From contig CM119372.1 in the NCBI GenBank assembly GCA_051294905.1, positions 38,566,001 to 38,630,000 on the forward strand: a stretch of DNA of 64,000 bases. The letters are read 5' to 3'. Each line of letters begins with the position of its first letter. Within the stretch, counting starts at the first letter, position 1. Below are positions 16,505-56,038 of the stretch, one piece after another. The notes below the pieces were generated by a model, which saw only the letters and a list, made by a program, of their open reading frames with translations, was not told the DNA's origin and searched no databases. This DNA is from Botryllus schlosseri. Taxonomy: Eukaryota. Position numbers and translations under genes: made by a program.

Positions 16505-17995
16505 CCTCTCGATTGGCCAACCTATATCATCCACGAAACTGAAAACGTCATGAACATTGCATCTTACGATCAGAATATCATTCCACAAATTACTTCATTC
16601 AATTCAACCTAATTATAAGAGAGAAGTGGAGCCTACCTAAAACAATATTTCAATTCCATGTAAACGTGTTTCCATAATGAAATAATTTAGTTGAATACGG
16701 TGGTTGCATGTGGGAAATTGTTGCTGACAAAATGTATTCACACTTTTATTTTTAATTTGAGACATCAGGTCTAGAGTGCAGTCGTCACCTCGTAAGTCAT
16801 TTCAAAAGTTTTCAAGTAATGCAGCTTTTCAAGGTGACTCGAATCAAGTAAAGTCATCTCAGATCTTCCGATTCCATGTCAACCTCACATTCCCCTAATG
16901 TCTGTATCATTTTGTGTGGATGCAGATGCCTGCATGGGCTAGACCTCGCTAGGCCTTGTCATGCTTGCTGACTAAACTATTACTGCGATATGATTCACGG
17001 GTTATTTATGTAAGTCACTGAGAATACTGGCAACGGTGAATAGGCTACTCAGTAATGGAAGGTTTATACATTATTATTTATTTTTACAGACACCAAAGTC
17101 AATTTTTTCATCTTTTTCGATTACAGAAAGTAATTGTCGAAACCCAGTAATGTATACCGCTTCCCTAATATGAACGTCCGATTACGAGAAAAACTCATGA
17201 CTTTTCGACTCCAGCGGCACTTTTTAGTACGATTTGTGGATATTTGGTTTGATTTAAGTAGTTGGAGTAGGATTCATAACGTTTTACCCAACTGCAACCG
17301 GTATTAAAAACTTTCCGTGATTCTTATTCCACCAAATGAAAATTTCACAAAACTGTTACTTCACTGCCGTGCTCTTAACTGCGTGTGATCGCAACTGTAG
17401 TACGACCGCTATGGGTCGACACCAACTTCAACTGCCGCAACTCTTTGAACGCACACTAACCGTATATGTGACCCGGTCACTGACAAACCCTATTAAGCCA
17501 TATCGCAATATTGTATTGTCGACAAAGTATGAAATCAGAAATCAATCTTACTCACTGTCTTACGATTATGAAGTCATGAAACTGACTGAATCGCAAAATA
17601 TAAGCTATGCTGCAGGCAGGCTGCAAGAAGTGGTCTCGCGAGTTGCGTGGTAGCGGACCCTTTGGCCAGTATAACTCGACCAAAAATTCATTCACATACA
17701 AGTTGAACTAGATATATGCGGACGAATCTCAGCTGTAATAAAGTCAGAAAGCTTTGAAATCGTCTGAATATGCCTGTAACAAAGCTTTATTGCGATGGCT
17801 AGATAATAGGTCAACTCCCTATCTTTATAATTTGCTGCCTCATAAAAAAAATTATGTCAGGTGAGCTGTATTACTTGGACGTATTGGCAGAACAATACCA
17901 TATCGAAATCAACTAACGTTTGTTTTCACAAGTTTACTGGTTTCGACGATAGTAGATTAAAGTGATTCGAAGTGATCAAGAAACATACTTTAGAG

Positions 17996-27656: not shown

Positions 27657-28998
27657 CAGTGGTTCCCAAATGGTGGGGAATTCCCCACTGGAGGGATTTC
27701 AATGGTTTCTGGTGGGGAATAGACGCATTTGTTCAAAATTATATAGAGGAGAGTCTACATATTCGCGGAGACACATGCACAATTACCGTTAGCAGTTTAC
27801 TGCTCTGGAATATATGTATCGGAAATTATATTGCGTGTTGTTCACAAAACCTCATTTTTAACTGTGGATTGGCAATGATGGCGTCACAAACGCATCCAGA
27901 ACGACTAGTTTGACGTGAAATAACGCTTTCGCGAAATTTTGAGTGTTACTGGTATCGGTTCACAATACGTTTTATGTTGCACTTATTGGCGATTGTCTTG
28001 CGTACTGGCATGGTTGTATGTCTTGTGTGGTCAAACCAGCAAATAGCTGCTCTGTGATGACAAAAGTGTTGGGCAGTGGGGAACAGGACCGTGACTGCCG
28101 CACCCCAAACTCCCCCGCGATTTAATATTGCCGAATATCTGATTACTGGGCACCTTTCCCCACGAAAATACGTACAATTTATAGAAATGCCGACTTCGCC
28201 GTCGGCCATTACTGCGCCACGACGCACCAAGTCATATGAAGTTATAGGCCATGCAACATGCAACTCTGAGAAGTGTGCCAGAACGATCAGCAGCGAGAAG
28301 ACCTTGGCCGAGAAGGAATGCCCTTGTGGTGACCCAAAACTTCGATGTATATACAATATACATATATGTTTAATTGGATAAATTGCTGGCGCCGAATGTT
28401 CCTGTCCTGGCGATCTGAACCGCACACGACAAATGCCATCCCGCAGGGAAATATTATTTGCCAGTAAAGCAATACCAATTTGAAATCGTGTGTGCCTTTT
28501 AGTTTTGGTGATTCCCATACCTTTTGACATAGCAGATATGGGAGGTCACGAAATAGCACAATGTAGCGAAGTCAATATACCAACGGGTCCACCCGAAGCT
28601 GTTCAATTTTTATATTTAGGGGTCCTACCTTTTCCAATACACCTCACTCAGCTCTACCGGCAAATCTGATTACGTGAGCAGAGCGGGGATAAAAAAATTA
28701 ATAGCAAAATATATGCAATTCCCGATCACATTGGCTGATTCAAACACGAATTATATCAATTTTTCGCGCTTCGCGCATTCAGTCGAAATAGGGTGACGCA
28801 CTAAACAGTAGACCCAATGTAGCTAATAAGTTGCAGGGAAAAAGCGTACAGGCTCAGCGGGGCTGAGGTGGTTCTGGGGGCCCAAGACCAACGTTTTTTT
28901 GATGGGGATGACAAAGTGCTGTTACGGTCCTGGTGGGGAATGAAGGCTCGGAATAAATCTGAAGTGGGGAATGAAGACAAAAAGGTTGGGAGCCACTG
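27657..28998. mobile_element. hAT MITE containing a nested MITE
   Basis: TIR cagtggttcccaa/ttgggagccactg; TSD ttctagta. Confidence 0.9.
28084..28932. mobile_element. Nested hAT MITE (CAGGACCGT family)
   Basis: TIR caggaccgtgac/gttacggtcctg; TSD gtggggaa; homologous to 48285-49599. Confidence 0.92.
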
Positions 28999-31900
28999 TT
29001 CTAGTATTCCCGGATTATCGCGCACTGTGACTTGTAAATGTGCAATGTGCATTGTGCATAGGCTACTGCATAGTTTAATTCGTTATGGGCATGGCGCAAT
29101 GTGCATGGCACAGTGTTTAATTCGATTATTCGATTTGTTTCAACCGGAAAATATTATATTCAGATAAACTTGATCGACACCGGATGGACTGGTAACGAGT
29201 GCACCAATATCGAACGTCAAACCATTGGCCATTTGGTACAAGTCGAATTTTTATTGATCACGTCGTTATATCAACCATATCGCTCTTACTACAGTTACAG
29301 TTGAATAATAATCGCACATTTAAAGTTGAATTGAGCTGTATGGCTTAATGTTAACGAGTACAGTGCCAGTGTTAAAACGCCGCATCAGAATTTTAATGCT
29401 GTACAAGTAGTGAGGGTATCGACTTTATACGCAGGCCATTCCCCTGCCTGAGGCTATTTACGTTCGTCATCACCCTAATTGCCACGCCTGACGACCAATG
29501 CCACGCCTAGATATTTTAATGTTTTGTGAATTTCAATACCGATTTTCCATGTGTATTTAGCAATATGTATTGAATAACTTGGTTCCGAGAAATAAATAAC
29601 ATTCATTATACGTTAGATGATTAAATTCCGCATTATTCGTTAGATGATTAAATTCCGACACTTTATCTTAACTTGCTTTCGAAAAATAAATATAAATTCA
29701 GATTATACATAAGTTTCCAAAACTCTTGATGTCTATGCAAGGCTATATTCGCCAGATAATATTATTATGTGTATTTGGACTTTGTATTTTAGCGGATGAC
29801 ATGAGCTCTCAGATAATACTCATCAACGTTGAACTATTGCGGCGGTTTTATGATGATTACGTTAGAAGATTAAATTCCAATCTCGCGCAATCAATTTATG
29901 TGTATTTAAGACTATATATGATACACAAGACCTCTGTAAATATTGAGAAATGGCATCATCACTAATTAATTAATGTTCATTTATTTCGAAAAAATTGCAT
30001 AATATATCAGTAATACCGTTAACGTCACAAACGCATCCAGCACGACCAGACGGCGTGAAACAACGCTTTCGCTCGATTCTTGTAGTCGCGACATTTCATA
30101 CGATTCAGTCCTTTTCATGTCACTAGAATAAGGGTAATTAAACCGACAGTGAAACGCCGCCGGCGTCCAATAACGTAATAATGTAAGCTGCGTCGGGTGC
30201 TGCTCTAATGTTAGGAGCGAATATACTAGAAATTCCACGTCTGGACACCTGTAAGCAGGTGAGCATACTACCGTAGTAAAACGCATAACAGAATTCACGC
30301 AAAAGTCGATATTGCTTTGTGATGATTTTGATGTTGTTCCATATCGATTGGGAAGATAGGACTCCTAATTTCCTAACTAACTACATAATCCCTAGTAACG
30401 CAGTCAGACGCATAACGGAATTTACGCAAAATCGGTATTGCTCTGCGATAATTTTGATCACTATGTTTTGATAATAACTTGCTTTGATGTTGTTCCATAT
30501 CGATTGGGAAGATAGCACACCTAATTTCGTAACTAACTACATAATCCCTAGTAACGTAGTCAGACGCATAACGGAATTAACGCAAATCGGCATTGCTCTG
30601 CGATAATTTTGATCACTATGTTTTGATAATGACTTGCTTCCGAGAAATAAATAACATTCATTATACGTTAGATGATACTTTTCCTTTATATTCTATTATG
30701 TGTATTTAGGTCTAATGCGACATCCCTATGTTGGCGACAGGCCTGGTTTGAACACACTAATTTTGCAAATTAAACTTATCACTCACCACGGACACTCAAT
30801 GAAGAGCACCCTGGAGCACCCACATAAATGCTCTACAATTCTTGACTTATAAGATACTGAGCATATAATAAGCTGACAAAACTGATACTTGAGTACTCCG
30901 AAGTGTACAAGTACTTTACCTTTACACGACGTTTTGTTAAATGAATACTAATGGTACGCGAATGATCATAGACTAAGCTTGCTTTCAGAGTTGGAAACTA
31001 AATGCATATGAAAATTTAACTACGTTTTCCCCACACGCATCAAATGTAGGCCTCCTCAAGTGTTTATGAGGCGGCAAATAGTTCGAAGGTTGTTGGTATG
31101 CAAGGACGTCACATAGAATTGTGGAGTTTTCTGTAAACTATAATCCAGTGATCTATTTTCAATCACTATACTTTTATTAATCTAAACTAAGTACTGTTAG
31201 TAGGCAGACCCTAGGAAAATATCCTCTGATAAAAGCTGGAGTAATTCGTTATCCGTGAAATAAATAGATAACGCGCAATATGAGCGGTGTTACGATGACT
31301 GACAAATACTTTGAATTAATGTATAGAAGTAGCGATTTCGAACTACGTGAAAAGTTAGTCGAGCTCACGCATTTTCCATTTTCAAAAGTCAAATTACGAC
31401 GATTTTTGTAAAATGAATACTTATTTTAATAAAAATTAAAAAAGAGCGAAAAATTACATTTTATCCCGTAACGCAACAAGAAAAACCGTATGAATTTAAA
31501 CTACTTATTCATGACATAATAATAATTCTGCTTGTACACTTTTTCACATTTGATAACACTTTTAGTAGTACTTAAAAGTTTCAGTTTTAAATAAAATTCG
31601 GAATATAAACTAATCAAAAATTTCGGTAACCAATTTCGCGTAGGCTATGCATACAAATGAGGAAAGTTACATCAACGCGTGATAACTAGTTGTATTATGT
31701 AGCTTGTAATTCATGCGAGTTTCGAAACTTTTACACTGAGTCTTTTAAAGTAGATGGAAACGAAAAAAAACTAATCGAAAAAATTTGCGAAGTTTGGACG
31801 CGGCATATTTAGGTTTTTTAAAAATTATTCATACCCATGACTCGAAATATTGTTAACTAACTTATGTTTTCGACATAAGATAAGCGTGAAGTGAACAAAT

Positions 31901-33140
31901 TTCGATGTTGCGCAAACACCACAAACTTTGCTTGCTTTCAGAGCAGGCAACTAAATGCAAGACAGACTTTACGCAAAAGTCGCTGTTCTGAAAATTTTGT
32001 CAAGTTAATAGTTTGAAAACTTATACTTGAGCACTACGAAATGTACAAGTACTTTACCTTTACACGACGTTTTTTGTAAAATGAATACGAATTTTAGTAA
32101 AAATAAAAAATAAAAATGAGCGAAAAATAACATTTTATCCCGGAAAGCAACAAGAAAAATCGTATGAATTTGTAAACTACTCATTAACGACATAACAATA
32201 ATTCTACTTGTACACTCTTTCACATTTTATAACACTTTTAGTAGTACTTAACGGTTTCAGTTTTAAATAAAATTCGGAATATAAACCAATCGAAAAATTC
32301 GGTAACCAATTTCGCGTAGGCTATGCATACAAATGAGGAAAGTTCGCGTGTTAACTAGTCGTATTTTGTAGCTTGTAATTCATGCAAGTAAGTCGGACAA
32401 ATTCGTCGCAAGAACACGACTCTAATGGACATAACTAAATGAAAATTTTGTCAAGTAGATATTTTTCGGTATGCTTAATTCGATGTTGTTCCATACCGAA
32501 TAGCACTCGTCAAGGTTATACAAGCATAACCCTAAACTACTCTTTACTTCACAAAATATAAAGTTAATAAAGTAAGCAGATTTGTATGAAAACTCGTTAA
32601 ATAGAAGTAAAAGTAGCCTAGAAACATAACTGCTTACTGAAAAATCGTTACGTAGAAGTGGGGTTAGTCTACGAACATAACCACTTACTTACTTTGAAAT
32701 CTCAACTTGTACTTGTATTCGTACTTTACCTTTGCACGGCGTTTTTGTATAATGAATACTAATTTTATTAAAAAAGTAAACAAAAAGCGCAAAAATTACA
32801 TTTTATCCCGGAACGCAGCAAGAAAAATCATATAAATTTTATAAAGTAGATAGAAAACTACACTATTCCGATGCACTAAAGACTCTTACACTCTGGATTT
32901 TGTGTAGTATATACTAATTTTACATTGCGGAGTATTCCATAGAGGTTAATCCAGTGATCCTCCTTCTGTTTTCAATCACGATCCGCTTATTATTCTAGGC
33001 TTCGAACCCCACACCCAGTACGTTTTATGGGGATTAATATTTTTAGATTAAATATAGCGTATCGAGACTTCGTGAAACTTACTTGGAAATAGTTATTTCT
33101 ACCCTAATTTAAAAGATTTCTCAGATATCGTAGCAACGGA

Positions 33141-33223
33141 ACTGGGTTGGCCGAGCGGTTAAGGCGTTGGGCTTAAGTTTCAATGAACAAGTGTTCATGT
33201 AGGTTCGAACCCCACACCCAGTA
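33141..33223 (+). tRNA. tRNA-Leu(TAA)-like gene/pseudogene in left arm
   Basis: Acceptor stem ACTGGGT/ACCCAGT, A box TGGCCGAGCGG, anticodon loop CT-TAA-GT, long variable arm, GGTTCGAACCC, TTTT terminator; one T-stem mismatch. Confidence 0.7.
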
Positions 33224-33993
33224 CGTTTTACGGGGATTAATATTTTTAGATTCAAATATAGCGTATCGAGAACTACTTATTCATGACATAATAATAATTC
33301 TACTTGTACACTTTTTCGTATTTTATAACACTTTTAGCAGTTCTTAACAGTTTAAGTTTTGATTAAAATTCGGAATATAAACTATTCCAAAAAATTCATG
33401 AAGTCCTGATACGCTTTATCTGAGTTTAAAAAATTATTCATCCTAATCTGCCTCATCATCATATGCTTGTAACTAGTTCCGGACTTGCTTGCATCATCGG
33501 CTGCGCGGTGCTAGTCTTCTTGGCCACATGAAATAGGATGTTTTAGCTTCAACCTCAACGCATTAGCACACTGAATTTAAATATTGGCGATAAATAATAT
33601 ACAGTAGCTCCAATTTTAATGAAAAATAAAAATAAAAAAGCGCGAAAAATTGCATTTATCCTGGAACGCACCAAGAAAAACCGTATGAATTTGTAAAGTA
33701 GTTAGAAAACTACACTATTCCGCTACACTAAAGACTTTGACACTCCGGATTTTCTATAGTGTATACTAATTTTACATTGCGGAGTATTCAGTAAAGTATA
33801 ATCCAGTGATCCTCCTTCTATTTTCAATCACGATCCTCTTATTTGTCTAGGCTACGAACCCCACACCCAGTACGTTTTATGGGGATTAATATTTTTAGAG
33901 TCATGTATGGCGTATCGAGACTTCGTGAAACTTACTTGGAAATAGTTACTTCTACCCTAATTTAAAAGGTTTCTCAGATATCGTTGCAATGGA

Positions 33994-34076
33994 GCTGGGT
34001 TGACCGAGCGGTTAAGGCGTTGGAATCAAGTTTCAATGAACCGGTGTTCATGTGGGTTCGAACCCAACGCCCAGTA
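33994..34076 (+). tRNA. tRNA-Leu(CAA)-like pseudogene, duplicate in left arm
   Basis: Same layout as 33141-33223 with loop AT-CAA-GT and more mismatches. Confidence 0.55.
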
Positions 34077-37000
34077 CGTTCTACGGGGATTAATATTTTT
34101 AGATTCAAATATAGCGTATCGAGTACTTTTTCTCAACTGTGCTAAAACTTTTTTCACTCCGTATTTCTGTAGTATATACTAATTTACAATACCGCATTTG
34201 TAATTCGTGCAAGTACAGGAATATCATAGTTCTTGTAACAATGTTGTATGCGCACAATATATGTTTATCATAAGTCCTACAAATTCATGATTTCGCCCTA
34301 GTTTGAGTTTTAGAAAATATTATACCTACATCGCGACATCTTTCAAAAACAAAACCATGATCAATGCTTGAGAGATCATGTTTGCTATTTTTCATTGGCA
34401 TAAGTCATTCTGGACCGCAAAAACGCATTGTACGATATAGATGAAACTTAAGAAAATCCTAGTATCCTCATTTTCAAAGTAGCCGAAAATATTCGGGTTC
34501 ATTTCAATATGAATATACTATTTAATTGTATATTGAAGTTCTGTACCTCCAAGAAGCTCTTCAAAGTAGCTTAGATCTCGAAATAAGCCCTGACTCGCTA
34601 TTCTCCTCAAACCATGGAATTGTCACGAGTATCACCTTCGATCACTGAAGAAAAGGATGAAATTATATCCGAAGCATATTTCTTGACCAGAAATTTTATC
34701 ATGTACGAACTCGACTTATAATATAGGCCTGTTTCAAATTCAAGACAGTTTCAGTGTTAAACAAAAATGTACCTTGAATACTAACTTTTATGATGTGAAA
34801 TATTATATGCATCAACGAAGAAACGTCACTTTTACAATGGTTCGGTATGATTTCTATATTATTACACTCTCGTTATTGGACTGTGGTGTGACGCTGAGCT
34901 ATATCTCGATGCCTGCGCTTCCGCATTTATTTTTTCGATGTATTCTGCCCTATGTAGATTTAACATAAGGAAGGTTACTTCACTCATAAAATTCGAAATA
35001 CGTATTTGCTCGAGTTGAAGCCATAACGCTTGGAGTGAAATTTTACGTGATTTTCGTTAATATCCAACCGGGCTAATTTCGAAATGTAAATTGAAAAACT
35101 CAAATACCGCATAGTAGGACTTCGCAGATTTTCAATTCATTTTTGCTATTTTTTCATGGTGATAAGTCATTCGGGACGGTGAAATGTATTGTAGGAAATA
35201 GATGAAACTGATACAATTCATCACGACCCCTGAAAAAAGTACATTACATTTAAACATTTTATTAGCAGGAAATCGAAATACCACAAACTGTGCTAACCTT
35301 CGGAGTTGTTAAGTAAAGAAGTACTCATACTTCTTCGGAGTACCCAAGTAGGTTTTTCGCCTACACGCACCAAATACTCTCAAGTCCTTATGATATTGGA
35401 GTGCTTCAACTTCATGATAGTTATAGTATTAAGCAGAAATATACCTGGTGTACTACCGTTTTGCTTACTCAGAAATGACTACTTCGTTCTTATTTTGAAG
35501 GATTCCTCGCTCGACGCGAAATTTTATTAAGTTTTGAATAATATCCAACATGTAGGTTCAATTTGAAGGGTACTTCGTCAAACTCAAATATTGCACAGGG
35601 AGAGTTCGCAAATTCTCGATGTATTATTGGTATTTTTATTGCAGTAAGTCATTCTGCAGTGCGAAAATGCATCGTAGGATATAGATGAAACTGACACCGC
35701 TCACCAAGACCACTGGACCACCGAAAAAAGTACATTTCAACATTTTAGTAGCAGTAAATTCCTAGTAAAGTACAAGAAGTGATGATTTCCGAGTGAGTTG
35801 AAAAGTAAGTATTGAAGGTATAGTTTGCTCGAACACCGAAAACTCAAAAATAGAAGAAGATGCAGTGTAAATAGTTGATATCTTGATTAAGTTTAGCGCA
35901 AGCAGGCCGAACCTATACTTCAGTACTCCAAAATGTACAACTACTTCGCTATGAACACCCTCCACGTAAAACGTGACTAGGTTTTAGTCTTTTAGACTAC
36001 TTTATCGCTACTTGGCAGTTTCAGTTTTAGATAAAATTTGGAATAAAAAAAAAACTAGCTCATTCACCCACTTGGAAATCTCTTCTTCAACCTTCACTTG
36101 AGTGGAGCAAGTAGATCTCATTTATTTTTAATTCCACATGTACACTCGACCATATTTTATGACTTACATAATTAATTTTCTCTATATTTGAAGTCAAGTC
36201 TGTCAAATAGCAGTATATGTTACGATGAGCTTATATTCGTTATGTTTGATCATTCTGACTAACGATATTCATTAGGTGAGCTCTCCAGTGATAGTCTTAG
36301 GACTTGGAACAGTGTTATATGACATCATAGCGATACGAAGTTACGACAGTTTATAATTAGCTACCTTACGAAACCAAATTTCGTTAGTTCATCTCCACCT
36401 TCAAATATCGCGTTATACAAATATTGTTTATACGGAACAAATACATATATGGCTATGTTGTTGCAATCTTCAAAAAAGTACCTCCCTCAGTATCCAATTT
36501 CTCGTGGGCTATGCATACAAATGAGGACAGTTACATCAACGAGTGGTAACTTGTTGTATTATGTAGCTAGTAATTAGTGCAAGTAAGTCCGCAACTACTG
36601 TTCAAGGCCTTTTCCGCGTTCTTAATAATATCACCTCAAGTTTACTCAAGTATCTCCAATTTGATACTCGAGCACTAAATCCTTCTTTTCCGCGGGCATG
36701 TTAGAGGACATAGGGCGATATTCAAACAATTCGCAATTTTGCTGGAATACAAGTACAATTAGGGATCTAAAAGTAACTAATATAGATGGTTATGTTTGTA
36801 GATTACTTACCCTTCTACTCAGAGGTTTTTCAGGTGGAACTACCTACCTTTAGGACTTCAAATGCTAAAGTAGTTAGAGCTTACGTTTGTATCACCTTAA
36901 CAAGTGGCATTATCAGATATGAAAATGATATTATCACATAATACCAGAAGTTAACACACGTCAATGTGTTTCGGACTTCACGAGAAATTGGTTACTAAGA

Positions 37001-37107
37001 GAAGTATATTCTTGTATACACAATAGCGGAGAGAATCTTTAAATTGTAGTAAGCAGGCCGATGGGTATTCATTGAGTTGGATAAGCATAAAAAACATTCC
37101 CGCGCGC

Positions 37108-37151
37108 TTCTAAACCTAACTCTGCCTAACCCTACCACCTAATCCTAAGAC
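37108..37151. repeat. Non-palindromic central loop of degenerate telomere-like CCTAA repeats
   Basis: ttctaaacctaactctgcctaaccctaccacctaatcctaagac, closed by cccgcgcgc/gcgcgcggg. Confidence 0.8.
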
Positions 37152-40100
37152 GCGCGCGGGAATGTTTTTTATGCTTATCCAACTCAATGAATACCCATCG
37201 GCCTGCTTACTACAATTTAAAGATTCTCTCCGCTATTGTGTATACAAGAATATACTTCTCTTAGTAACCAATTTCTCGTGAAGTCCGAAACACATTGACG
37301 TGTGTTAACTTCTGGTATTATGTGATAATATCATTTTCATATCTGATAATGCCACTTGTTAAGGTGATACAAACGTAAGCTCTAACTACTTTAGCATTTG
37401 AAGTCCTAAAGGTAGGTAGTTCCACCGGAAAAACCTCTGAGTAGTAGGGTAAGTAATCTACAAACATAACCATCTATATTAGTTACTTTTAGATCCCTAA
37501 TTGTACTTGTATTCCAGCAAAATTGCGAATTGTTTGAATATCGCCCTATGTCCTCTAACATGCCCGCGGAAAAGAAGGATTTAGTGCTCGAGTATCAAAT
37601 TGGAGATACTCGAGTAAACTTGAGGTGATATTATTAAGAACGCGGAAAAGGCCTTGAACAGTAGTTGCGGACTTACTTGCACTAATTACTAGCTACATAA
37701 TACAACAAGTTACCACTCGTTGATGTAACTGTCCTCATTTGTATGCATAGCCCACGAGAAATTGGATACTGAGGGAGGTACTTTTTTGAAGATTGCAACA
37801 ACATAGCCATATATGTATTTGTTCCGTATAAACAATATTTGTATAACGCGATATTTGAAGGTGGAGATGAACTAACGAAATTTGGTTTCGTAAGGTAGCT
37901 AATTATAAACTGTCGTAACTTCGTATCGCTATGATGTCATATAACACTGTTCCAAGTCCTAAGACTATCACTGGAGAGCTCACCTAATGAATATCGTTAG
38001 TCAGAATGATCAAACATAACGAATATAAGCTCATCGTAACATATACTGCTATTTGACAGACTTGACTTCAAATATAGAGAAAATTAATTATGTAAGTCAT
38101 AAAATATGGTCGAGTGTACATGTGGAATTAAAAATAAATGAGATCTACTTGCTCCACTCAAGTGAAGGTTGAAGAAGAGATTTCCAAGTGGGTGAATGAG
38201 CTAGTTTTTTTTTTATTCCAAATTTTATCTAAAACTGAAACTGCCAAGTAGCGATAAAGTAGTCTAAAAGACTAAAACCTAGTCACGTTTTACGTGGAGG
38301 GTGTTCATAGCGAAGTAGTTGTACATTTTGGAGTACTGAAGTATAGGTTCGGCCTGCTTGCGCTAAACTTAATCAAGATATCAACTATTTACACTGCATC
38401 TTCTTCTATTTTTGAGTTTTCGGTGTTCGAGCAAACTATACCTTCAATACTTACTTTTCAACTCACTCGGAAATCATCACTTCTTGTACTTTACTAGGAA
38501 TTTACTGCTACTAAAATGTTGAAATGTACTTTTTTCGGTGGTCCAGTGGTCTTGGTGAGCGGTGTCAGTTTCATCTATATCCTACGATGCATTTTCGCAC
38601 TGCAGAATGACTTACTGCAATAAAAATACCAATAATACATCGAGAATTTGCGAACTCTCCCTGTGCAATATTTGAGTTTGACGAAGTACCCTTCAAATTG
38701 AACCTACATGTTGGATATTATTCAAAACTTAATAAAATTTCGCGTCGAGCGAGGAATCCTTCAAAATAAGAACGAAGTAGTCATTTCTGAGTAAGCAAAA
38801 CGGTAGTACACCAGGTATATTTCTGCTTAATACTATAACTATCATGAAGTTGAAGCACTCCAATATCATAAGGACTTGAGAGTATTTGGTGCGTGTAGGC
38901 GAAAAACCTACTTGGGTACTCCGAAGAAGTATGAGTACTTCTTTACTTAACAACTCCGAAGGTTAGCGCAGTTTGTGGTATTTCGATTTCCTGCTAATAA
39001 AATGTTTAAATGTAATGTACTTTTTTCAGGGGTCGTGATGAATTGTATCAGTTTCATCTATTTCCTACAATACATTTCACCGTCCCGAATGACTTATCAC
39101 CATGAAAAAATAGCAAAAATGAATTGAAAATCTGCGAAGTCCTACTATGCGGTATTTGAGTTTTTCAATTTACATTTCGAAATTAGCCCGGTTGATATTA
39201 ACGAAAATCACGTAAAATTTCACTCCAAGCGTTATGGCTTCAACTCGAGCAAACACGTATTTCGAATTTTATGAGTGAAGTAACCTTCCTTATGTTAAAT
39301 CTACATAGGGCAGAATACATCGAAAAAATAAATGCGGAAGCCCAGGCATCGAGATATAGCTCAGCGTCACACCACAGTCCAATAACGAGAGTGTAATAAT
39401 ATAGAAATCATACCGAACCATTGTAAAAGTGACGTTTCTTCGTTGATGCATATAATATTTCACATCATAAAAGTTAGTATTCAAGGTACATTTTTGTTTA
39501 ACACTGAAACTGTCTTGAATTTGAAACAGGCCTATATTATAAGTCGAGTTCGTACATGATAAAATTTCTGGTCAAGGAATATGCTTCGGATATAATTTCA
39601 TCCTTTTCTTCAGTGATCGAAGGTGATACTCGTGACAATTCCATGGTTTGAGGAGAATAGCGAGTCAGGGCTTATTTCGAGATCTAAGCTACTTTGAAGA
39701 GCTTCTTGGAGGTACAGAACTTCAATATACAATTAAATAGTATATTCATATTGAAATGAACCCGAATATTTTCGGCTACTTTGAAAATGAGGATACTAGG
39801 ATTTTCTTAAGTTTCATCTATATCGTACAATGCGTTTTTGCGGTCCAGAATGACTTATGCCAATGAAAAATAGCAAACATGATCTCTCAAGCATTGATCA
39901 TGGTTTTGTTTTTGAAAGATGTCGCGATGTAGGTATAATATTTTCTAAAACTCAAACTAGGGCGAAATCATGAATTTGTAGGACTTATGATAAACATATA
40001 TTGTGCGCATACAACATTGTTACAAGAACTATGATATTCCTGTACTTGCACGAATTACAAATGCGGTATTGTAAATTAGTATATACTACAGAAATACGGA

Positions 40101-40181
40101 GTGAAAAAAGTTTTAGCACAGTTGAGAAAAAGTACTCGATACGCTATATTTGAATCTAAAAATATTAATCCCCGTAGAACG

Positions 40182-40264
40182 TACTGGGCGTTGGGTTCGA
40201 ACCCACATGAACACCGGTTCATTGAAACTTGATTCCAACGCCTTAACCGCTCGGTCAACCCAGC
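40182..40264 (-). tRNA. Mirror copy of the tRNA-Leu(CAA)-like sequence
   Basis: Reverse complement of 33994-34076. Confidence 0.55.
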
Positions 40265-41034
40265 TCCATTGCAACGATATCTGAGAAACCTTTTAAATTA
40301 GGGTAGAAGTAACTATTTCCAAGTAAGTTTCACGAAGTCTCGATACGCCATACATGACTCTAAAAATATTAATCCCCATAAAACGTACTGGGTGTGGGGT
40401 TCGTAGCCTAGACAAATAAGAGGATCGTGATTGAAAATAGAAGGAGGATCACTGGATTATACTTTACTGAATACTCCGCAATGTAAAATTAGTATACACT
40501 ATAGAAAATCCGGAGTGTCAAAGTCTTTAGTGTAGCGGAATAGTGTAGTTTTCTAACTACTTTACAAATTCATACGGTTTTTCTTGGTGCGTTCCAGGAT
40601 AAATGCAATTTTTCGCGCTTTTTTATTTTTATTTTTCATTAAAATTGGAGCTACTGTATATTATTTATCGCCAATATTTAAATTCAGTGTGCTAATGCGT
40701 TGAGGTTGAAGCTAAAACATCCTATTTCATGTGGCCAAGAAGACTAGCACCGCGCAGCCGATGATGCAAGCAAGTCCGGAACTAGTTACAAGCATATGAT
40801 GATGAGGCAGATTAGGATGAATAATTTTTTAAACTCAGATAAAGCGTATCAGGACTTCATGAATTTTTTGGAATAGTTTATATTCCGAATTTTAATCAAA
40901 ACTTAAACTGTTAAGAACTGCTAAAAGTGTTATAAAATACGAAAAAGTGTACAAGTAGAATTATTATTATGTCATGAATAAGTAGTTCTCGATACGCTAT
41001 ATTTGAATCTAAAAATATTAATCCCCGTAAAACG

Positions 41035-41117
41035 TACTGGGTGTGGGGTTCGAACCTACATGAACACTTGTTCATTGAAACATAAGCCCAACGCCTTAAC
41101 CGCTCGGCCAACCCAGT
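41035..41117 (-). tRNA. Mirror copy of the tRNA-Leu-like sequence with anticodon TAT
   Basis: Reverse complement of 33141-33223 except that the loop reads CT-TAT-GT. Confidence 0.6.
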
Positions 41118-44100
41118 TCCGTTGCTACGATATCTGAGAAATCTTTTAAATTAGGGTAGAAATAACTATTTCCAAGTAAGTTTCACGAAGTCTCGATACG
41201 CTATATTTAATCTAAAAATATTAATCCCCATAAAACGTACTGGGTGTGGGGTTCGAAGCCTAGAATAATAAGCGGATCGTGATTGAAAACAGAAGGAGGA
41301 TCACTGGATTAACCTCTATGGAATACTCCGCAATGTAAAATTAGTATATACTACACAAAATCCAGAGTGTAAGAGTCTTTAGTGCATCGGAATAGTGTAG
41401 TTTTCTATCTACTTTATAAAATTTATATGATTTTTCTTGCTGCGTTCCGGGATAAAATGTAATTTTTGCGCTTTTTGTTTACTTTTTTAATAAAATTAGT
41501 ATTCATTATACAAAAACGCCGTGCAAAGGTAAAGTACGAATACAAGTACAAGTTGAGATTTCAAAGTAAGTAAGTGGTTATGTTCGTAGACTAACCCCAC
41601 TTCTACGTAACGATTTTTCAGTAAGCAGTTATGTTTCTAGGCTACTTTTACTTCTATTTAACGAGTTTTCATACAAATCTGCTTACTTTATTAACTTTAT
41701 ATTTTGTGAAGTAAAGAGTAGTTTAGGGTTATGCTTGTATAACCTTGACGAGTGCTATTCGGTATGGAACAACATCGAATTAAGCATACCGAAAAATATC
41801 TACTTGACAAAATTTTCATTTAGTTATGTCCATTAGAGTCGTGTTCTTGCGACGAATTTGTCCGACTTACTTGCATGAATTACAAGCTACAAAATACGAC
41901 TAGTTAACACGCGAACTTTCCTCATTTGTATGCATAGCCTACGCGAAATTGGTTACCGAATTTTTCGATTGGTTTATATTCCGAATTTTATTTAAAACTG
42001 AAACCGTTAAGTACTACTAAAAGTGTTATAAAATGTGAAAGAGTGTACAAGTAGAATTATTGTTATGTCGTTAATGAGTAGTTTACAAATTCATACGATT
42101 TTTCTTGTTGCTTTCCGGGATAAAATGTTATTTTTCGCTCATTTTTATTTTTTATTTTTACTAAAATTCGTATTCATTTTACAAAAAACGTCGTGTAAAG
42201 GTAAAGTACTTGTACATTTCGTAGTGCTCAAGTATAAGTTTTCAAACTATTAACTTGACAAAATTTTCAGAACAGCGACTTTTGCGTAAAGTCTGTCTTG
42301 CATTTAGTTGCCTGCTCTGAAAGCAAGCAAAGTTTGTGGTGTTTGCGCAACATCGAAATTTGTTCACTTCACGCTTATCTTATGTCGAAAACATAAGTTA
42401 GTTAACAATATTTCGAGTCATGGGTATGAATAATTTTTAAAAAACCTAAATATGCCGCGTCCAAACTTCGTAAATTTTTTCGATTAGTTTTTTTTCGTTT
42501 CCATCTACTTTAAAAGACTCAGTGTAAAAGTTTCGAAACTCGCATGAATTACAAGCTACATAATACAACTAGTTATCACGCGTTGATGTAACTTTCCTCA
42601 TTTGTATGCATAGCCTACGCGAAATTGGTTACCGAAATTTTTGATTAGTTTATATTCCGAATTTTATTTAAAACTGAAACTTTTAAGTACTACTAAAAGT
42701 GTTATCAAATGTGAAAAAGTGTACAAGCAGAATTATTATTATGTCATGAATAAGTAGTTTAAATTCATACGGTTTTTCTTGTTGCGTTACGGGATAAAAT
42801 GTAATTTTTCGCTCTTTTTTAATTTTTATTAAAATAAGTATTCATTTTACAAAAATCGTCGTAATTTGACTTTTGAAAATGGAAAATGCGTGAGCTCGAC
42901 TAACTTTTCACGTAGTTCGAAATCGCTACTTCTATACATTAATTCAAAGTATTTGTCAGTCATCGTAACACCGCTCATATTGCGCGTTATCTATTTATTT
43001 CACGGATAACGAATTACTCCAGCTTTTATCAGAGGATATTTTCCTAGGGTCTGCCTACTAACAGTACTTAGTTTAGATTAATAAAAGTATAGTGATTGAA
43101 AATAGATCACTGGATTATAGTTTACAGAAAACTCCACAATTCTATGTGACGTCCTTGCATACCAACAACCTTCGAACTATTTGCCGCCTCATAAACACTT
43201 GAGGAGGCCTACATTTGATGCGTGTGGGGAAAACGTAGTTAAATTTTCATATGCATTTAGTTTCCAACTCTGAAAGCAAGCTTAGTCTATGATCATTCGC
43301 GTACCATTAGTATTCATTTAACAAAACGTCGTGTAAAGGTAAAGTACTTGTACATTTCGGAGTACTCAAGTATCAGTTTTGTCAGCTTATTATATGCTCA
43401 GTATCTTATAAGTCAAGAATTGTAGAGCATTTATGTGGGTGCTCCAGGGTGCTCTTCATTGAGTGTCCGTGGTGAGTGATAAGTTTAATTTGCAAAATTA
43501 GTGTGTTCAAACCAGGCCTGTCGCCAACATAGGGATGTCGCATTAGACCTAAATACACATAATAGAATATAAAGGAAAAGTATCATCTAACGTATAATGA
43601 ATGTTATTTATTTCTCGGAAGCAAGTCATTATCAAAACATAGTGATCAAAATTATCGCAGAGCAATGCCGATTTGCGTTAATTCCGTTATGCGTCTGACT
43701 ACGTTACTAGGGATTATGTAGTTAGTTACGAAATTAGGTGTGCTATCTTCCCAATCGATATGGAACAACATCAAAGCAAGTTATTATCAAAACATAGTGA
43801 TCAAAATTATCGCAGAGCAATACCGATTTTGCGTAAATTCCGTTATGCGTCTGACTGCGTTACTAGGGATTATGTAGTTAGTTAGGAAATTAGGAGTCCT
43901 ATCTTCCCAATCGATATGGAACAACATCAAAATCATCACAAAGCAATATCGACTTTTGCGTGAATTCTGTTATGCGTTTTACTACGGTAGTATGCTCACC
44001 TGCTTACAGGTGTCCAGACGTGGAATTTCTAGTATATTCGCTCCTAACATTAGAGCAGCACCCGACGCAGCTTACATTATTACGTTATTGGACGCCGGCG

Positions 44101-45302
44101 GCGTTTCACTGTCGGTTTAATTACCCTTATTCTAGTGACATGAAAAGGACTGAATCGTATGAAATGTCGCGACTACAAGAATCGAGCGAAAGCGTTGTTT
44201 CACGCCGTCTGGTCGTGCTGGATGCGTTTGTGACGTTAACGGTATTACTGATATATTATGCAATTTTTTCGAAATAAATGAACATTAATTAATTAGTGAT
44301 GATGCCATTTCTCAATATTTACAGAGGTCTTGTGTATCATATATAGTCTTAAATACACATAAATTGATTGCGCGAGATTGGAATTTAATCTTCTAACGTA
44401 ATCATCATAAAACCGCCGCAATAGTTCAACGTTGATGAGTATTATCTGAGAGCTCATGTCATCCGCTAAAATACAAAGTCCAAATACACATAATAATATT
44501 ATCTGGCGAATATAGCCTTGCATAGACATCAAGAGTTTTGGAAACTTATGTATAATCTGAATTTATATTTATTTTTCGAAAGCAAGTTAAGATAAAGTGT
44601 CGGAATTTAATCATCTAACGAATAATGCGGAATTTAATCATCTAACGTATAATGAATGTTATTTATTTCTCGGAACCAAGTTATTCAATACATATTGCTA
44701 AATACACATGGAAAATCGGTATTGAAATTCACAAAACATTAAAATATCTAGGCGTGGCATTGGTCGTCATATAGGCGTGGCAATTAGGGTGATGACGAAC
44801 GTAAATAGCCTCAGGCAGGGGAATGGCCTGCGTATAAAGTCGATACCCTCACTACTTGTACACCAGTGTTGGGATGACTCGAGTCTTGACTTGACTCGAG
44901 TCACCTTTTTCGTGTGACTTGACTTGACTCGAGTCACTTTGCAAAAATGACTTGACTTGACTCGGCGCTTCAAAAATGTGTATTGACTCGTGACTCGGAG
45001 CAAAATTCACGAGTCAATTTCAAGTCATTAAGTAAACTGTGTCGATTAAATAACCATATCTTGTTTATGTTTGGGTTGTTCGCGATACGCCGATGTCACT
45101 TGTGAAAGCAACCGGTCATTCGCTGATTGCTCGTTTCACTGATTCTCCATTGTCACATCACAAATAATTTGACCGCTAACGAAACAATCACAGCTTACGT
45201 TATCTTAGTAGCAATAGATTAATCTAATAGCAACGTGTATCCTTGTTTTTAAGACATTACATTGCGGATGTGCTCACATTTACCAACCATCTTGTTTGAT
45301 AT

Positions 45303-46780
45303 TATTATATTCTTTATTCACAGTAAGAAACTGGTCAATACACTCATAATCCGGGGAGCAACCTGCACCCAAAGGAAAATGGCGAGATTGGAGTAAATTT
45401 TTTAAAATTTCAGTAATGCAGTCAAATTGTTATTCTTATGCAATACATGGAGAAGTCAGATTACAGAATTGCAGTAGATGAAGCATTGGCAAGGGTTACA
45501 GAGCAGAGGTAGAGATGATTGAAAATGAAGAATAGAAATTACAGAAATGATGCTGTGATTCACTAGTATAATTTTAGTCCAGAGGTGCATTCAACGCCTT
45601 TCAATCGTTGTGCTTTGGCGCATATTCTCATTTTTAATTCTTCTTGCAACATTGTCAGTTTTTCTGTTGACTGCAGTTTGGTTTGGTGCTCCAGTTCTAT
45701 TCTTTTTACTTTATTTTTTACTTTGCGGGAAACATTTCCTTTTTTTAGTTCTGAGAGTATCGCAACGTCACACCTTGGTTTTGCGATTTTGTTTTCAATT
45801 CTGCGTTGCCAAACTGGCGTATGCCTTCCCCTTTTTTGTTGATAGTTCTTGGTATTTTGCAGTGCCTTTCTGAGATAACTGCCGCAGTGCTATAAATGAG
45901 GTTGTTGATTGTTGTCAAGGGACATTGTGGTTTTTCTCCTTGTTTGTCATTTAGAGTTGCAGGCAGTATGGTTTCTGTCAAAATTTTGTTCGCTACTGCA
46001 ATATCCGTTTTCAGTTTCTTTGTAATTTGTAAGTCAGGTAACTGCACTCTGTCATTTACATTCAATGTGGATTTCATTCGGTCGATGATTTGATTTTTGA
46101 TCTCCAATTCTAATTCCGTGTCTATGTCGCCATCATTAGGTGTTGTTGATTCATTCGGGTGCCCGGTGGTATTTTGTAATTCTACTTCTGCGATGTTCGG
46201 GTCATCAAGTGATTGTTGTGGATCAGGTGATCTTGGCCGAATTGCAGTTCCATTGCCTCAGAGTTTTCTATGTTTTTGTTACACATTTCTCCCTCGATTT
46301 CTGCGAATTCTTGTTCAGATAATTTTTTATTTTTTATTACACAACGTCTCATTGTTGCCAGGGTATTGGCAGTCATGGTTGGAGAGTTGTTCGTTCTCTC
46401 TTTCCATTTTTGAAAAGTTCCTTCGGTTACTCCTGCCGAGTTTTCAAATTTGGTTAAGAAGTAACATCTCATTATTTCTTTATACTCTTCTTTACTCCAT
46501 CTGTGTCTCTTCTTTTTTTCTTTTGCAGCAGAGCTGTTTTGTGAGCCACAGTTCGGTGTTGCACAGGCGCCATGTTGAGAAATATCTTCTCTTTGGTGTT
46601 CCTGTGTGGTCGGAGTTGACGAGTCCTCTGGGGTCATCCGCTTGTTCCCGCGGCGGGTACGTCCAGGTGCGATATATCCAAATCGTTTCGCAGGCATTCA
46701 CAGCAGTGATGCGTCAGTTCAGAAGTTAGGTTAATTTAAAGTAATTAATTAATTATTAATTAATTCCTTAATACAACCAA
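45303..46780 (-). mobile_element. Internally deleted R4/Dong-like non-LTR retrotransposon
   Basis: KRHRWSKEEYKEIMRCYF...W...LATMRRCVIKNKKLSEQEFAEI and RVQLPDL...INNLIYSTAAVI resemble the R4/Dong ORF N-terminus; (TAA)n-like sequence at both ends; frameshifted, no RT domain. Confidence 0.7.
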
Positions 46781-47122
46781 ATATTATTATTATTATTAAT
46801 AGCACATTTACAGTGGCGCTTATCGCCTTTTTCAGGCTTTGTGCACCACGACACGAATATTTGTAATGTTCATTGGTCTTTGTCTTCAGTAATCTTGGGG
46901 ACGACTTCTTAGATCTTTCGCTCATTCATACGTCAGACTCTCTCACATCCATGCGTCCCGGTCGTGGTCTTTACTGCCGACTTCTAGCGCGGCTCACTTT
47001 CGTTCTGGGCTTTTCAATGCACTGCAACGGCAGTGAGGTCGGCGATGAGGAGCCCAGAAAAACCTCCGACACATAGAAGTTGATCCGAACCGGGATTCGA
47101 ACCACTACCATTGGTGTCGTGA
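46781..47122 (-). mobile_element. 5'-truncated tRNA-derived SINE with (TAA)n tail
   Basis: B box GGTTCGAATCCC and 3' gataagcgcca, shared with 53285-53477; 15-bp TSD catcttgtttgatat at 45288-45302 and 47123-47137. Confidence 0.8.
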
Positions 47123-48284
47123 CATCTTGTTTGATATAAAACGAACGAATATAGTTTACGCGTTTATATTCTCACGGATGTGTATTTGGGCAGTGTATTG
47201 TACCACATCAATTTCTTCAACTTCTCGAGGCTTCGTATTCGATCCCCTATATTGGCTGATAAAATCAGACTGTAGATGTAACTATACAATTACTCGCGTA
47301 TTTTATTAGCAGTTCCACGTTTGCGTGAGTGCTGCAACATCGTTTTGCATGTATGTTTATCTTTATATTCGTTATTTGATTCAAGATAAATGGCCAATTC
47401 ATCTGTCCTTAATCTAGTTAGCAAAATGTAATGACTTTGCATCATCACTCATACTTCGAATTTTCAATTTGACTTGAATCGTGACTTGACTCGTGACTTG
47501 ACTTGACTTGACTCGATTTGACTCGAGTCACCTCCAAAAAACGAGCGACTTGACTTGACTCGAGTCACCTTTGAAAATCGATTGACTTGACTTGACTCGA
47601 GTCAAAATGTGCAATGACTCGAGATGACTCGTGACTTGAAGGTAGTGACTTGATCCCAACACTGCTGTACACAGCAATGGTACGGAGTAAAGTGCGTTGT
47701 GCAACTATAGAGTATGACTGGAGTGACGACTCGATTGTTCTCCCATTGTTAGCCGGCAGAATGGTCACGGTCAGATGGATCCACCCAAAACAGGATCGCT
47801 CAGTGCTTGTTTCAATGGCGTTCAAGGCGATTCGCCGTGTATTTCTTGAAGTTGCGTCGGAATTAGTTAGACAGTTCAACATTTAGGTAGCGGTGGCGAG
47901 TCGTTATGACTAGTGAATAATACTGTGCAGCCTATGTTACATTTCTCACGAGATTGATGTGATATTGTGGCTTTGATCCTTTGTAGAGTTTGCTACGTAT
48001 ATGAATATAATGACAGAAGGTATAGATTCTATATAGAATAGCTGGTTCGTGTGCATTGGCTATTGTGAGATGAATTCATGGAAAGAAAGACTGAAGAATA
48101 CTACAAAGTGAACAAGTGGAAAGATCTTGAACTATACCGATATGCAATTCACGATATCGTTGATTGAAAATATGTCCTATATTAACTGCAGAAACTCGAG
48201 TATGAATATAACAAATAATATTGCAACTGTCTTGTAGTCTTATATAATGCCTGTCAGATAACCGCAGAAACTGAGTATGACTAG

Positions 48285-54372: not shown

Positions 54373-54505
54373 GTGTCCTAACAATTTTCTCTGCTCGCCT
54401 TTTTCATCCATGGTGTAACCAGCTGTCTTTTAATGGGTAAAGTGGTGCCAAACCTGTCAAAACATGTCGATTGGACTCTACGAGTAGGTACATTAACTAT
54501 AAATC

Positions 54506-56038
54506 ATGGCTGCCGGCGACGAAACGTTCAAACTGCCCATGAGAATATGGCTTTGTGATTTGGTCGACAAGGCGAAGATTCGCGGTTTGGAGTGGTACGA
54601 CCAGGAAAAACGGCATATCAAAGTACCGTGGGCTAAGCGGCACGAGCCGGGCTGGGAGAATTGTGAAGAAGTCGTGACCGAGTGGGCTAAACATCAACAC
54701 CGCGAGGAAAAGAAAGGTGTCAAGTCCGATTTTTCAACGTTGAAGGCCAACTTCAGAAACGCGATCCACAAATCGGAAGATTTCACCGAAGTAAAAGAGC
54801 TGTCTCAACTCGACAGACAGACTGGAAACTTTAAAGTGTACAAGCTATTCACCCGAGCGGAGGTGGAGCAGAAAAAACTAGAGAAAAAACAGGAGGGCCG
54901 TAAACGTAAAACAGCAGCGAAATCTCCATCAACAGGAAAGCTTCTCTGCAGCCCGCACAATTACGATGATGGCATGCTAAAAGACGTGCCTGAAAAAGAC
55001 TTGAACTTGCCACTCAACACGACGCAATCTCTGATCGCAGCTGATTTGCTGGAACTGCAAAATGTCAGTTTCGCTGCAGCGTCCGGTAATAATATTGCTT
55101 CTCCTGTTTATCACCAGCAAACTACGAATGGTACAACTTTTCAGGATCAGGACTTTGAGAATATGTACCCAAGCACTACGACAGTTCCTACGCCGTGTAC
55201 CAGCGACGGCAGTCTTGTTGATCCTTTGTCTCAAATTATCCAAGACCACGGTATCCATCCATGTACCGGAGATATCACCGCTACAGGGTTCCTTCACAGC
55301 CAAAAAGTGGATGCAGAGAGTCTTTTAAAAGCTTTTGATGTCAAAATCAATGACATCCGTCGATGCAGGCTAACAGTCACATATAACAGCGGTCAGGTGT
55401 TGGATAACGAATTGCGAGACACATTCCCTGGCTACAGACTACATTATGGTGACGAGAAAGACTTGAAGCAGGCGTTGGAATATCACCAGCACGGCCGCCA
55501 AGTTTCAGAAATAGACCCAAATGATTTTAAATATCAATCAGTCCGGTTGCCTAATCCAAAAAGCGAGTACACACATCTTCAGGGTATCCTGAATGTTACA
55601 GAGCTGGGTTTAACTTTCCGCTATGATCCCGCAAGCTATTCGTTTTATATGAAGAGACTTTGTCAAAGTCAAATATTCTATCTTGACCCGCACACGCGGA
55701 TGGGTTGTCAACAGCCCATTAAAATTGAGAGAAATCAAGAAATATGTATTTTCTCATATGAGAGGTTTTTACAGTCTGTGTCAAAAGCTATACAGGAAGG
55801 CAACTGCAATCATCTGGCTCTGTACCCGATGCTTCAACTCTCTATTGGATCAAAATCCAACCTGGAATTACAAAATCCCAGTCCTCGGGGAATCAAAGTG
55901 ACGATATACATCTGCTGCCTGAAAGGTTTCTTTGAAGAAAATGATATTAACGGAGAGCTGTCCATTAAACTCAGCACGCCCAACGAAATGGAGCAAATTC
56001 TACATCGATTGAAGAACATGAGGATGGACACAAATTAG
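54506..56038 (+). CDS. IRF: Interferon regulatory factor family transcription factor (DNA-binding domain + IAD), intronless, 510 aa
   Basis: N-terminal tryptophan-repeat DBD (MRIWL...GLEW...VPW...EWA...KANFR..I.KS...KVYKL) and C-terminal IAD/SMAD-like domain (LTVTY..., YMKRLCQSQIFY, KIERNQEICIFSY..F). Specific orthologue not assignable. Confidence 0.95.
   Translation: MAAGDETFKLPMRIWLCDLVDKAKIRGLEWYDQEKRHIKVPWAKRHEPGWENCEEVVTEWAKHQHREEKKGVKSDFSTLKANFRNAIHKSEDFTEVKELSQLDRQTGNFKVYKLFTRAEVEQKKLEKKQEGRKRKTAAKSPSTGKLLCSPHNYDDGMLKDVPEKDLNLPLNTTQSLIAADLLELQNVSFAAASGNNIASPVYHQQTTNGTTFQDQDFENMYPSTTTVPTPCTSDGSLVDPLSQIIQDHGIHPCTGDITATGFLHSQKVDAESLLKAFDVKINDIRRCRLTVTYNSGQVLDNELRDTFPGYRLHYGDEKDLKQALEYHQHGRQVSEIDPNDFKYQSVRLPNPKSEYTHLQGILNVTELGLTFRYDPASYSFYMKRLCQSQIFYLDPHTRMGCQQPIKIERNQEICIFSYERFLQSVSKAIQEGNCNHLALYPMLQLSIGSKSNLELQNPSPRGIKVTIYICCLKGFFEENDINGELSIKLSTPNEMEQILHRLKNMRMDTN

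Follow-up and report, generated by a model that had tools for sequence, protein, structure and literature searches.

Near-perfect, gene-less 15-kb palindromes with Maverick/Polinton-type ends form a dispersed family in Botryllus schlosseri

A palindrome without genes and its insertion site

We analyzed a 64,000-nucleotide stretch of the Botryllus schlosseri genome (the window; C2:38566001-38630000 of a 495.5-Mb assembly of 219 contigs, with no N within it), which carries at 29406-44856 an element of 15,451 bp that is a near-perfect palindrome with 7.7-kb arms (Table 1). An inverted-repeat search recovers the arms as three collinear pairs, 29489-35071/39187-44769 (5,583 nt, 100%), 35065-37111/37148-39194 (2,047 nt, 100%) and 29397-29489/44773-44865 (93 nt, 99%), with a joint span of 29397-44865. 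Base-by-base comparison outside the loop gives ten substitutions (30903, 31787, 33176, 34681, 34916, 35004, 35291, 36648, 36814 and 36832) and two indels, one of 4 nt near 29490 and one of 1 nt near 35065-35071, for a total of 12 arm differences. An initial annotation made from the sequence alone had described full-length arms, a 44-nt loop and about 13 differences, in good agreement with this count; the AGTAGT start (29406-29411) and ACTACT finish (44851-44856), the TGTACA at either side and the repeated boxes near the ends, all of which it had reported, are also present. A loosened form of the box motif GCCACGCC has only three further matches in the 64 kb.

The same annotation saw no protein-coding capacity, and we find none: the longest open frame in the arm is 127 amino acids (aa), none of the six arm frames of at least 80 aa has a Pfam match at E≤0.1, and the arm has no tblastx match at E≤1e-3 in 17 kb of DNA from coding Mavericks. 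The palindrome thus has neither the genes of its own nor the rve integrase of an autonomous Maverick. It does have the Maverick end motif, a 6-bp duplication and terminal inverted repeats, the last of these extreme at 7.7 kb each.

Table 1. Coordinates of the palindrome, its flanks and other features of the window
Feature	Position	Strand	Description
Target-site duplication, left	29400-29405		TGTACA
Left arm	29406-37107	+	7,702 bp, non-coding, begins (AGT)2
Left-end boxes	29481-29507	+	two GCCACGCC (29481, 29500), 76 and 95 nt from the end
tRNA-Leu-like sequence	33141-33224	+	Rfam tRNA 48 bits; inside a ~853-bp internal direct repeat
tRNA-Leu-like copy	33994-34077		in the second repeat unit
Central loop	37108-37151	+	44 nt, between ATTCCCGCGCGC and GCGCGCGGGAAT; resembles degenerate host telomere repeats, C-rich strand
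Right arm	37152-44856	-	7,705 bp, reverse complement of the left arm, finishes (ACT)2
tRNA-Leu-like copies	40181-40264, 41034-41117		mirrors in the right arm
Right-end boxes	44751-44781	-	two GCCACGCC, reverse-complemented (44751, 44774); compared with the left end, 4 nt are inserted between them
Target-site duplication, right	44857-44862		TGTACA
Older neighbor element	44864-47664		2.8 kb, 12-bp inverted ends CAGTGTTGGGAT, 8-bp duplication CTGTACAC
Neighbor's right duplication copy	47665-47672		CTGTACAC, undisturbed; internal empty site with a single TGTACA
Host gene frame	15458-16594	-	intronless rhodopsin-family receptor, 7tm_1 87 bits
Host gene frame	54503-56038	+	interferon-regulatory-factor protein, IRF 80 bits, IRF-3 65 bits

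The order of events at the locus can be read from an older element immediately to the right. The neighbor's left duplication copy is split, running as C (29399), TGTACA (29400-29405), the palindrome, and then TGTACA and C (44857-44863), and its right copy is intact; the neighbor therefore duplicated CTGTACAC first, and the palindrome entered later, duplicating TGTACA. In run X1, 58 contigs of related host-repeat copies pass from TGTACA directly into CAGCAATGG, and in X5, 27 do so; this continuation picks up again in the window at 47672. Because TGTACA is itself palindromic, duplications of 2, 4 or 6 bp are inseparable from this locus alone, and it is the other copies that separate them (see below). 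The neighbor has subterminal GACTTGACTCGAGTC repeats, none of its four frames has a Pfam match, and the length of its 8-bp duplication would fit hAT.

We also aligned contigs of four sequencing runs to the interval 28600-30100. No listed contig joins 29405 to 29406, and an empty allele at the exact locus was not found in these runs over that interval. The bin 29416-29466, which is specific to the subfamily of the window copy, is covered by contigs in X1, X5 and X6, representing three studies with the same species label. In run X10, which has another species label, contigs lie on 29467-30100 at ~90% identity and none lie on the terminal bin; the family, perhaps without the window's subfamily, seems to be common to a related species. 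The left flank (28600-29405) is a very high-copy repeat, and its summed contig depth is greater than that of the terminal 50 nt of the palindrome by a factor of 100-1000. By contig depth the arm stretch 29518-29619 is also far more abundant than its neighbors, and the arms seem to be composed of pieces of other repeats. The tRNA-Leu-like sequences may be inserts of the short interspersed element type or captured tRNA genes; the arm difference at 33176 falls in a tRNA anticodon, and ARAGORN calls the mirror copy tRNA-Ile.

Other copies have the same ends and varied 6-bp duplications

The first 301 bp of the palindrome match at least 62 places genome-wide (the best 40 of 808 first-look candidates were scored), and many of these form inverted pairs 11-19 kb apart. 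AGTAGT is at the expected position in 27 of 30 fetched family ends; among 26 tallied ends, 19 begin AGTAGTG and seven AGTAGTA. One end (C15, near 1442403) begins with (AGT)4, and several others read AGTAGTAGG. Copies elsewhere are similarly palindromic, with 7,631-bp arms at 99.96% identity on C12 and 7,391-bp arms at 99.77% on C7; a copy on C3 is also palindromic, and the copy at C6:19708731-19725260 has arms 99.6% identical over 3,122 bp. This last copy carries in one arm only a retrotransposon lacking long terminal repeats, with endonuclease, reverse transcriptase and RNase H frames (6013-9745 of the excerpt, minus strand), which has been neither removed nor copied to the other arm.

All eleven palindromic copies for which both flanks were compared have 6-bp duplications. 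Six are perfect (TGTACA, CCTAGG, CATCGC, AACTTA, ATCATC and CTCGAG), four have one mismatch (CACTAG/CACTGG, ATTGCC/ATTGCT, GTCGTG/GTCGAG and GTCGTT/TTCGTT), and one, in an old 5.2-kb copy, has two (AACACT/AAAATT). In a twelfth copy, on C11, the ends are not at the predicted positions. The perfect duplications that are not palindromic (CATCGC, AACTTA and ATCATC) show that the duplication is exactly 6 bp and that the terminus is AGTAGT. We considered a TA duplication with CAAGTAGT termini, as in a foldback of Tc1/mariner type, and also a GTAC duplication, and rejected both, as AACTTA, CATCGC, ATCATC and GTCGTG adjoin AGTAGT directly. The initial annotation had held out TA flanks with CAAGTAGT termini as the outcome that would speak against it, and the flanks are instead varied hexamers; its proposal of a non-autonomous element with Maverick-type ends and 6-bp duplications is upheld by the eleven copies. 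Three of the eleven target hexamers are perfect palindromes (TGTACA, CCTAGG and CTCGAG), with an expectation of about 1 in 64, which suggests a symmetric target preference.

By coordinate arithmetic the copies are 11.6, 14.4, 14.9, 15.45, 15.5, 16.5, 16.7, 17.3, 17.6, 19.4 and 5.2 kb long. Ten of the eleven are thus between 11.6 and 19.4 kb, as compared with 17.5 kb for a coding Maverick of the same genome (see below).

A common loop resembling host telomere repeats

The loop is not peculiar to the window copy. A 601-bp segment spanning it has matches in all 40 places scored (the best 40 of 795 candidates), at 86-93% on either strand and 90-93% on the better strand. The same 39-45-nt loop lies between the same GC-rich stems in 18 of 18 cases (17 fetched centers and the window), and with the variants found in the C7, C3, C12 and C6 copies, a homologous loop is present in 22 of 22. 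In the C12 copy about 200 bp beside the loop are absent on one side, leaving a 240-bp spacer. With up to two mismatches allowed, a 28-nt loop core is found at 131 genomic sites (69 forward and 62 reverse), and a reversed-pattern control gives no occurrence. The loop common to all 22 copies and the 131 core sites indicate that the palindromic architecture is ancestral to the family and was not formed at the window locus. The suggestion in the initial annotation that one terminus and ~7.7 kb of adjacent DNA had been folded back needs revision accordingly, since the loop is inherited and the arms have no similarity to Maverick genes. Of the 100 loops listed, at least seven pairs are no more than 20 kb apart.

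The host telomere repeat is TTAGGG: five tandem units give 11,434 matches, including the end of contig C1, and six units of TTAGG give 25. The window loop aligns with (CCCTAA)n over 40 nt with a score of 24. Shuffling the loop 2,000 times never gives that score (maximum 19), nor is it attained by any of 5,815 44-mers sampled from the window, where the next best scores, 23 and 21, both come from segments overlapping the loop. The loop variants of the other copies score 17-20.5. Read on the opposite strand, each copy has the form arm, seven TTAGGG-like units, inverted arm, and judged by this sequence match the loop looks like a degenerate tract of host telomere. A plausible origin would be a telomere-extended 3' end that folded back and primed synthesis along its own strand; alternatively, and with the same outcome, an internal telomere-like tract could have stalled a polymerase and provoked a strand switch.

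Coding Mavericks and an arm-coding chimera

The genome also contains coding Mavericks. A search with PF04665, the poxvirus A32-type packaging ATPase, gives 83 genomic matches, many in open frames of 205 aa. A typical coding copy, C2:30437785-30455320, is 17,536 bp long, runs from AGTAGT to ACTACT with a CTTACT duplication at both sides, and has ends that are 99% alike over 100 nt. Its frames include a BIR frame, a 424-aa frame without a Pfam match and a long frame of at least 927 aa that runs on into a 385-aa frame of the chimera described below. Homologues of the long frame number 78 at E≤1e-5. PF03175 is present in 54 of these, whose E-values reach as low as 2e-196, and a protein atlas places the frame with PF03175 clusters (score 0.96); from these homologues and this placement we take it to be the protein-primed polymerase. 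Pfam searches with pieces of the polymerase yield only a sub-threshold match to Pox_F12L, and a search of the sequences of solved structures with two of the pieces returned nothing relevant. A PF00770 (adenain) search of the genome gave no candidates, and no protease was identified. The BIR (inhibitor-of-apoptosis) frame, PF00653 at 65.5 bits, lies just inside the left end (4717-5349 of the excerpt, minus strand) and could represent an accessory gene. Genome-wide, a 31-nt site of the polymerase gene is found 29 times; set against the 131 loop cores, this means that palindromes outnumber this coding subfamily by at least 4.5 to 1.

A direct connection between the two kinds of element is provided by a chimera at C5:20788136-20807016, which was located through an ATPase match 8.9 kb inside an AGTAGT family end. 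It is 18,881 bp long and is flanked on both sides by a perfect CACAAG duplication, a further non-palindromic example outside the set of eleven copies. An arm of the palindrome family makes up its left 7.7 kb, next come the initial 27 nt of the loop, and the remainder is the 3' two thirds of a coding Maverick, entered in the middle of the long open frame at a junction with short CC/ACC microhomology; the polymerase is cut at about codon 927 and the first ~927 codons are absent. The coding part includes a Pox_A32-type ATPase (35.9 bits, cut-off 22.8), an integrase (rve 50.2 bits) with a C-terminal chromodomain (34.1 bits) and a capsid candidate, the weak double-jelly-roll match of which scores 16 bits and falls short of the cut-off. 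Among 40 scored places the junction occurs once; 28 of the places match the coding half only (27 at 97-99% and one at 95%) and 11 the arm half only (three of them at 100%). The two ends of the chimera are identical over ~51 nt by eye, and 95.6% identical over 68 bp by BLAST. With one end of palindrome type and one of coding type, near-identical at the tip, the chimera shows that both kinds of end work together in one insertion, and the hybrid suggests that the two kinds of DNA meet during replication.

The ends of coding Mavericks and palindromes have in common (AGT)2, a CCAATC-like word near position 35, one GCCACGTC...CTAATTGCCACGCC unit and further GCCAC-type boxes, and the GCCACG(C/T)C boxes of the palindrome ends are also found on the resident coding Mavericks. 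Global identity between coding and palindrome ends over the first 100 nt is 58-71%, and is 63% between the window's terminal 100 nt and the end of C2:30437785-30455320; blastn of the window arm against the left part of that copy gives no match. The window's terminal 73 nt, whole or in part, occur at 13 places, all of which were scored, and a pair on C7 among them is another palindrome. The initial annotation had proposed a search for coding copies sharing the terminus. Such copies exist as far as the motif, boxes and duplication length are concerned, and no coding copy with the window's own terminus was found among the 13 places.

Arms are more alike than the flanking duplications

Eight copies allow both to be compared: 76 of 26,151 aligned arm nt are different (0.29%), as are 4 of 48 duplication positions (8.3%). 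The duplications are thus ~29 times more diverged than the arms: 0.2 mismatches would be expected from the arm divergence and four are observed (Poisson P = 6e-5). Arm identity is 99.6-100% in six of the eight copies, and 98.5% and 99.2% in the other two. One example is the C12 copy, which has three arm differences in 7,631 nt and a mismatched duplication nonetheless. We favor an explanation in which the arms would be homogenized after insertion by arm-to-arm gene conversion. Repair of hairpin heteroduplexes could homogenize them as well; other possibilities are error-prone gap repair at insertion, or short-read polishing that blurred differences between the arms. Conversion that spills from the arms into the flanks was considered and set aside, as by eye the duplications with one mismatch do not fit it.

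Origin and propagation of the family

We think it quite likely that the palindrome is one copy of a large family of gene-less, non-autonomous Maverick/Polinton derivatives, built as near-perfect palindromes of ~15 kb, and the family probably uses the enzymes of the resident Mavericks. Their rve-chromodomain integrase would insert the palindrome in trans, and their protein-primed polymerase would copy it from its (AGT)n ends. Slide-back initiation is a mode of protein-primed replication that two to four AGT units would fit. A displaced single strand could snap back into a 7.7-kb hairpin, the paired ends of which would resemble a normal duplex terminus, and with ten of the eleven copies at 11.6-19.4 kb beside a helper of 17.5 kb, packaging is conceivable. 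The family may go back to one ancestral event, the copying back on itself of a truncated element's inner end, which carried or had acquired about seven telomere repeats. After insertion the arms appear to be kept more alike than neutral drift allows, most simply through gene conversion between them.

Several observations weigh against this interpretation. Over their first 100 nt, the ends of the window copy reach only 58-63% identity with four coding or chimera ends, with (AGT)2 and the box layout shared, and none of the 13 places with all or part of the window's terminus is at any of the 83 ATPase matches, so that the search turned up no helper whose terminus matches. The copies closest to the window element are 93-97% identical to it, giving no sign of recent movement of its subfamily, and the existence of the 5.2-kb copy weakens a strict size limit. 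A genome-wide PF03175 search gave no matches from nine candidates, which was a miss, since homology did reveal the polymerase. Polishing of the assembly could have raised arm identity artificially. Finally, two loops in the same orientation lie 5.3 kb apart at C16:11764500-11774499, with a gap of 100 N and a direct duplication (3.2 kb, 100% identical) next to them; the gap and the identical duplication indicate that this is probably an assembly problem.

In a more elaborate proposal, the family would be a satellite, with a hairpin genome, of a Maverick virus. It would have arisen once, by copy-back from a telomere-healed broken end, would have a ready-made origin and a duplex held near helper length by travel in helper capsids, and would outnumber its helper and compete with it much as defective interfering genomes do. 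Each single strand would then be a self-complementary 7.7-kb hairpin offering an origin to the helper's terminal protein and polymerase. We regard this as an unlikely, speculative extension. Nor do we find it probable that the family is simply a fossil, moved by Mavericks long ago, with arm identity due to conversion or polishing and with no present replication or satellite behavior. The ~29-fold excess of divergence in the duplications would be as expected for such relics, as would the 93-97% identity of the window copy's nearest relatives and the failure to find a helper bearing its terminus, but a different subfamily includes three further copies that match the chimera at 100% over the inner 379 bp of the arm, coding halves at 27 places are 97-99% identical to that of the chimera with a 28th at 95%, and duplications are perfect in six of eleven palindromes, in the chimera and in the coding copy.

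The relationship to Mavericks would be illusory if the element were a classical foldback transposon, comparable to Drosophila FB or Galileo, moved by an unrelated cut-and-paste transposase and with AGTAGT ends by coincidence. Nearly the whole element is indeed inverted repeat with internal direct repeats, the terminal 100 nt of the window copy are only ~60% identical to coding Maverick ends, and non-autonomous Galileo copies consisting of long inverted repeats only are described in the available text of PMC3573991. That text gives a 7-bp duplication for Galileo, however, and the duplication here is 6 bp in eleven of eleven copies; the end motif is exactly that published for Mavericks in the part of PMC8097293 available; the arm-coding hybrid was inserted as a unit with a perfect 6-bp duplication; and there is no transposase-like frame in the six copies read (the window, C12, C3, C6 and C7 copies and the arm of the chimera). 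A foldback origin of this kind therefore seems very improbable to us. Palindromes are also a known artefact of long-read libraries, and the C16 locus with its gap and suspicious duplication is a reminder of this. We nonetheless give almost no credence to an assembly artefact such as a chimeric palindromic read, or to local copy-back at the locus: the window copy has clean ends, a target duplication, a position inside the duplication of an older element and 12 arm differences, its loop is common to 131 genomic places, and its terminal 50 nt are covered by contigs of three studies with the same species label.

Relationship to known elements

In the available part of Barreat and Katzourakis (2021, PMC8097293), vertebrate Mavericks have (AGT)2//(ACT)2 or (AG)3...(CT)3 ends and perfect 6-bp duplications, and are 12.7-24.6 kb long with inverted repeats of 46-1,447 bp; the inverted repeats of butterfly polintons are given as ~2 kb in the accessible text of bioRxiv 10.1101/2025.02.07.637071. 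The Botryllus palindrome resembles such elements in its end motif, its 6-bp duplication, its length of 15.5 kb within the published range (PMC8097293) and its coexistence with coding copies. It differs in being gene-less, in having 7.7-kb inverted repeats that constitute the whole element, and in that only the terminal motif and boxes resemble those of the coding copies. With foldback transposons (Drosophila FB, and Galileo as described in the available portion of PMC3573991) it shares a composition of mostly long, internally repetitive inverted repeats, a non-autonomous majority and the presence of chimeric copies. Galileo, by the same portion of that source, belongs to the P superfamily and has 7-bp duplications and inverted repeats of up to 1.26 kb, in contrast to the 6-bp duplications, 7.7-kb arms and Maverick-type ends seen here.

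Two further comparisons are instructive. Protein-primed linear DNA viruses generate snap-back or copy-back defective genomes, as in incomplete adenovirus particles, in which one end and its adjacent DNA are inverted and duplicated, giving two identical origins, no essential genes and dependence on a helper. Those genomes are transient in infected cells, whereas the palindrome family is heritable and integrated, with at least 131 copies that go back to a single fold-back event. The large palindromes of the human Y chromosome are kept uniform by arm-to-arm gene conversion, and in the palindrome family arm identity is likewise well above what the flanking duplications predict; the Y palindromes are single-copy and gene-bearing, whereas the family described here is dispersed and mobile with a ~40-nt spacer. 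Non-autonomous derivatives are well described for cut-and-paste transposons. In the literature searched we found no paper on a gene-less, full-length palindromic or foldback derivative of a Maverick/Polinton, which is an absence and not proof. What is added here is the table of duplications, the internal empty site, the census of copies, a coding partner with its duplication, the arm-coding chimera and the telomere-like loop.

If Maverick machinery is used, the palindrome ends show which parts suffice in cis, namely (AGT)n and a few short boxes, and the family would offer a natural substrate for studying how protein-primed replication and integration work. A concrete route by which such palindromes may arise is suggested by the telomere-like loop. 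The family is also a natural experiment, in which an animal genome tolerates more than 100 near-perfect 15-kb palindromes whose arms are kept alike.

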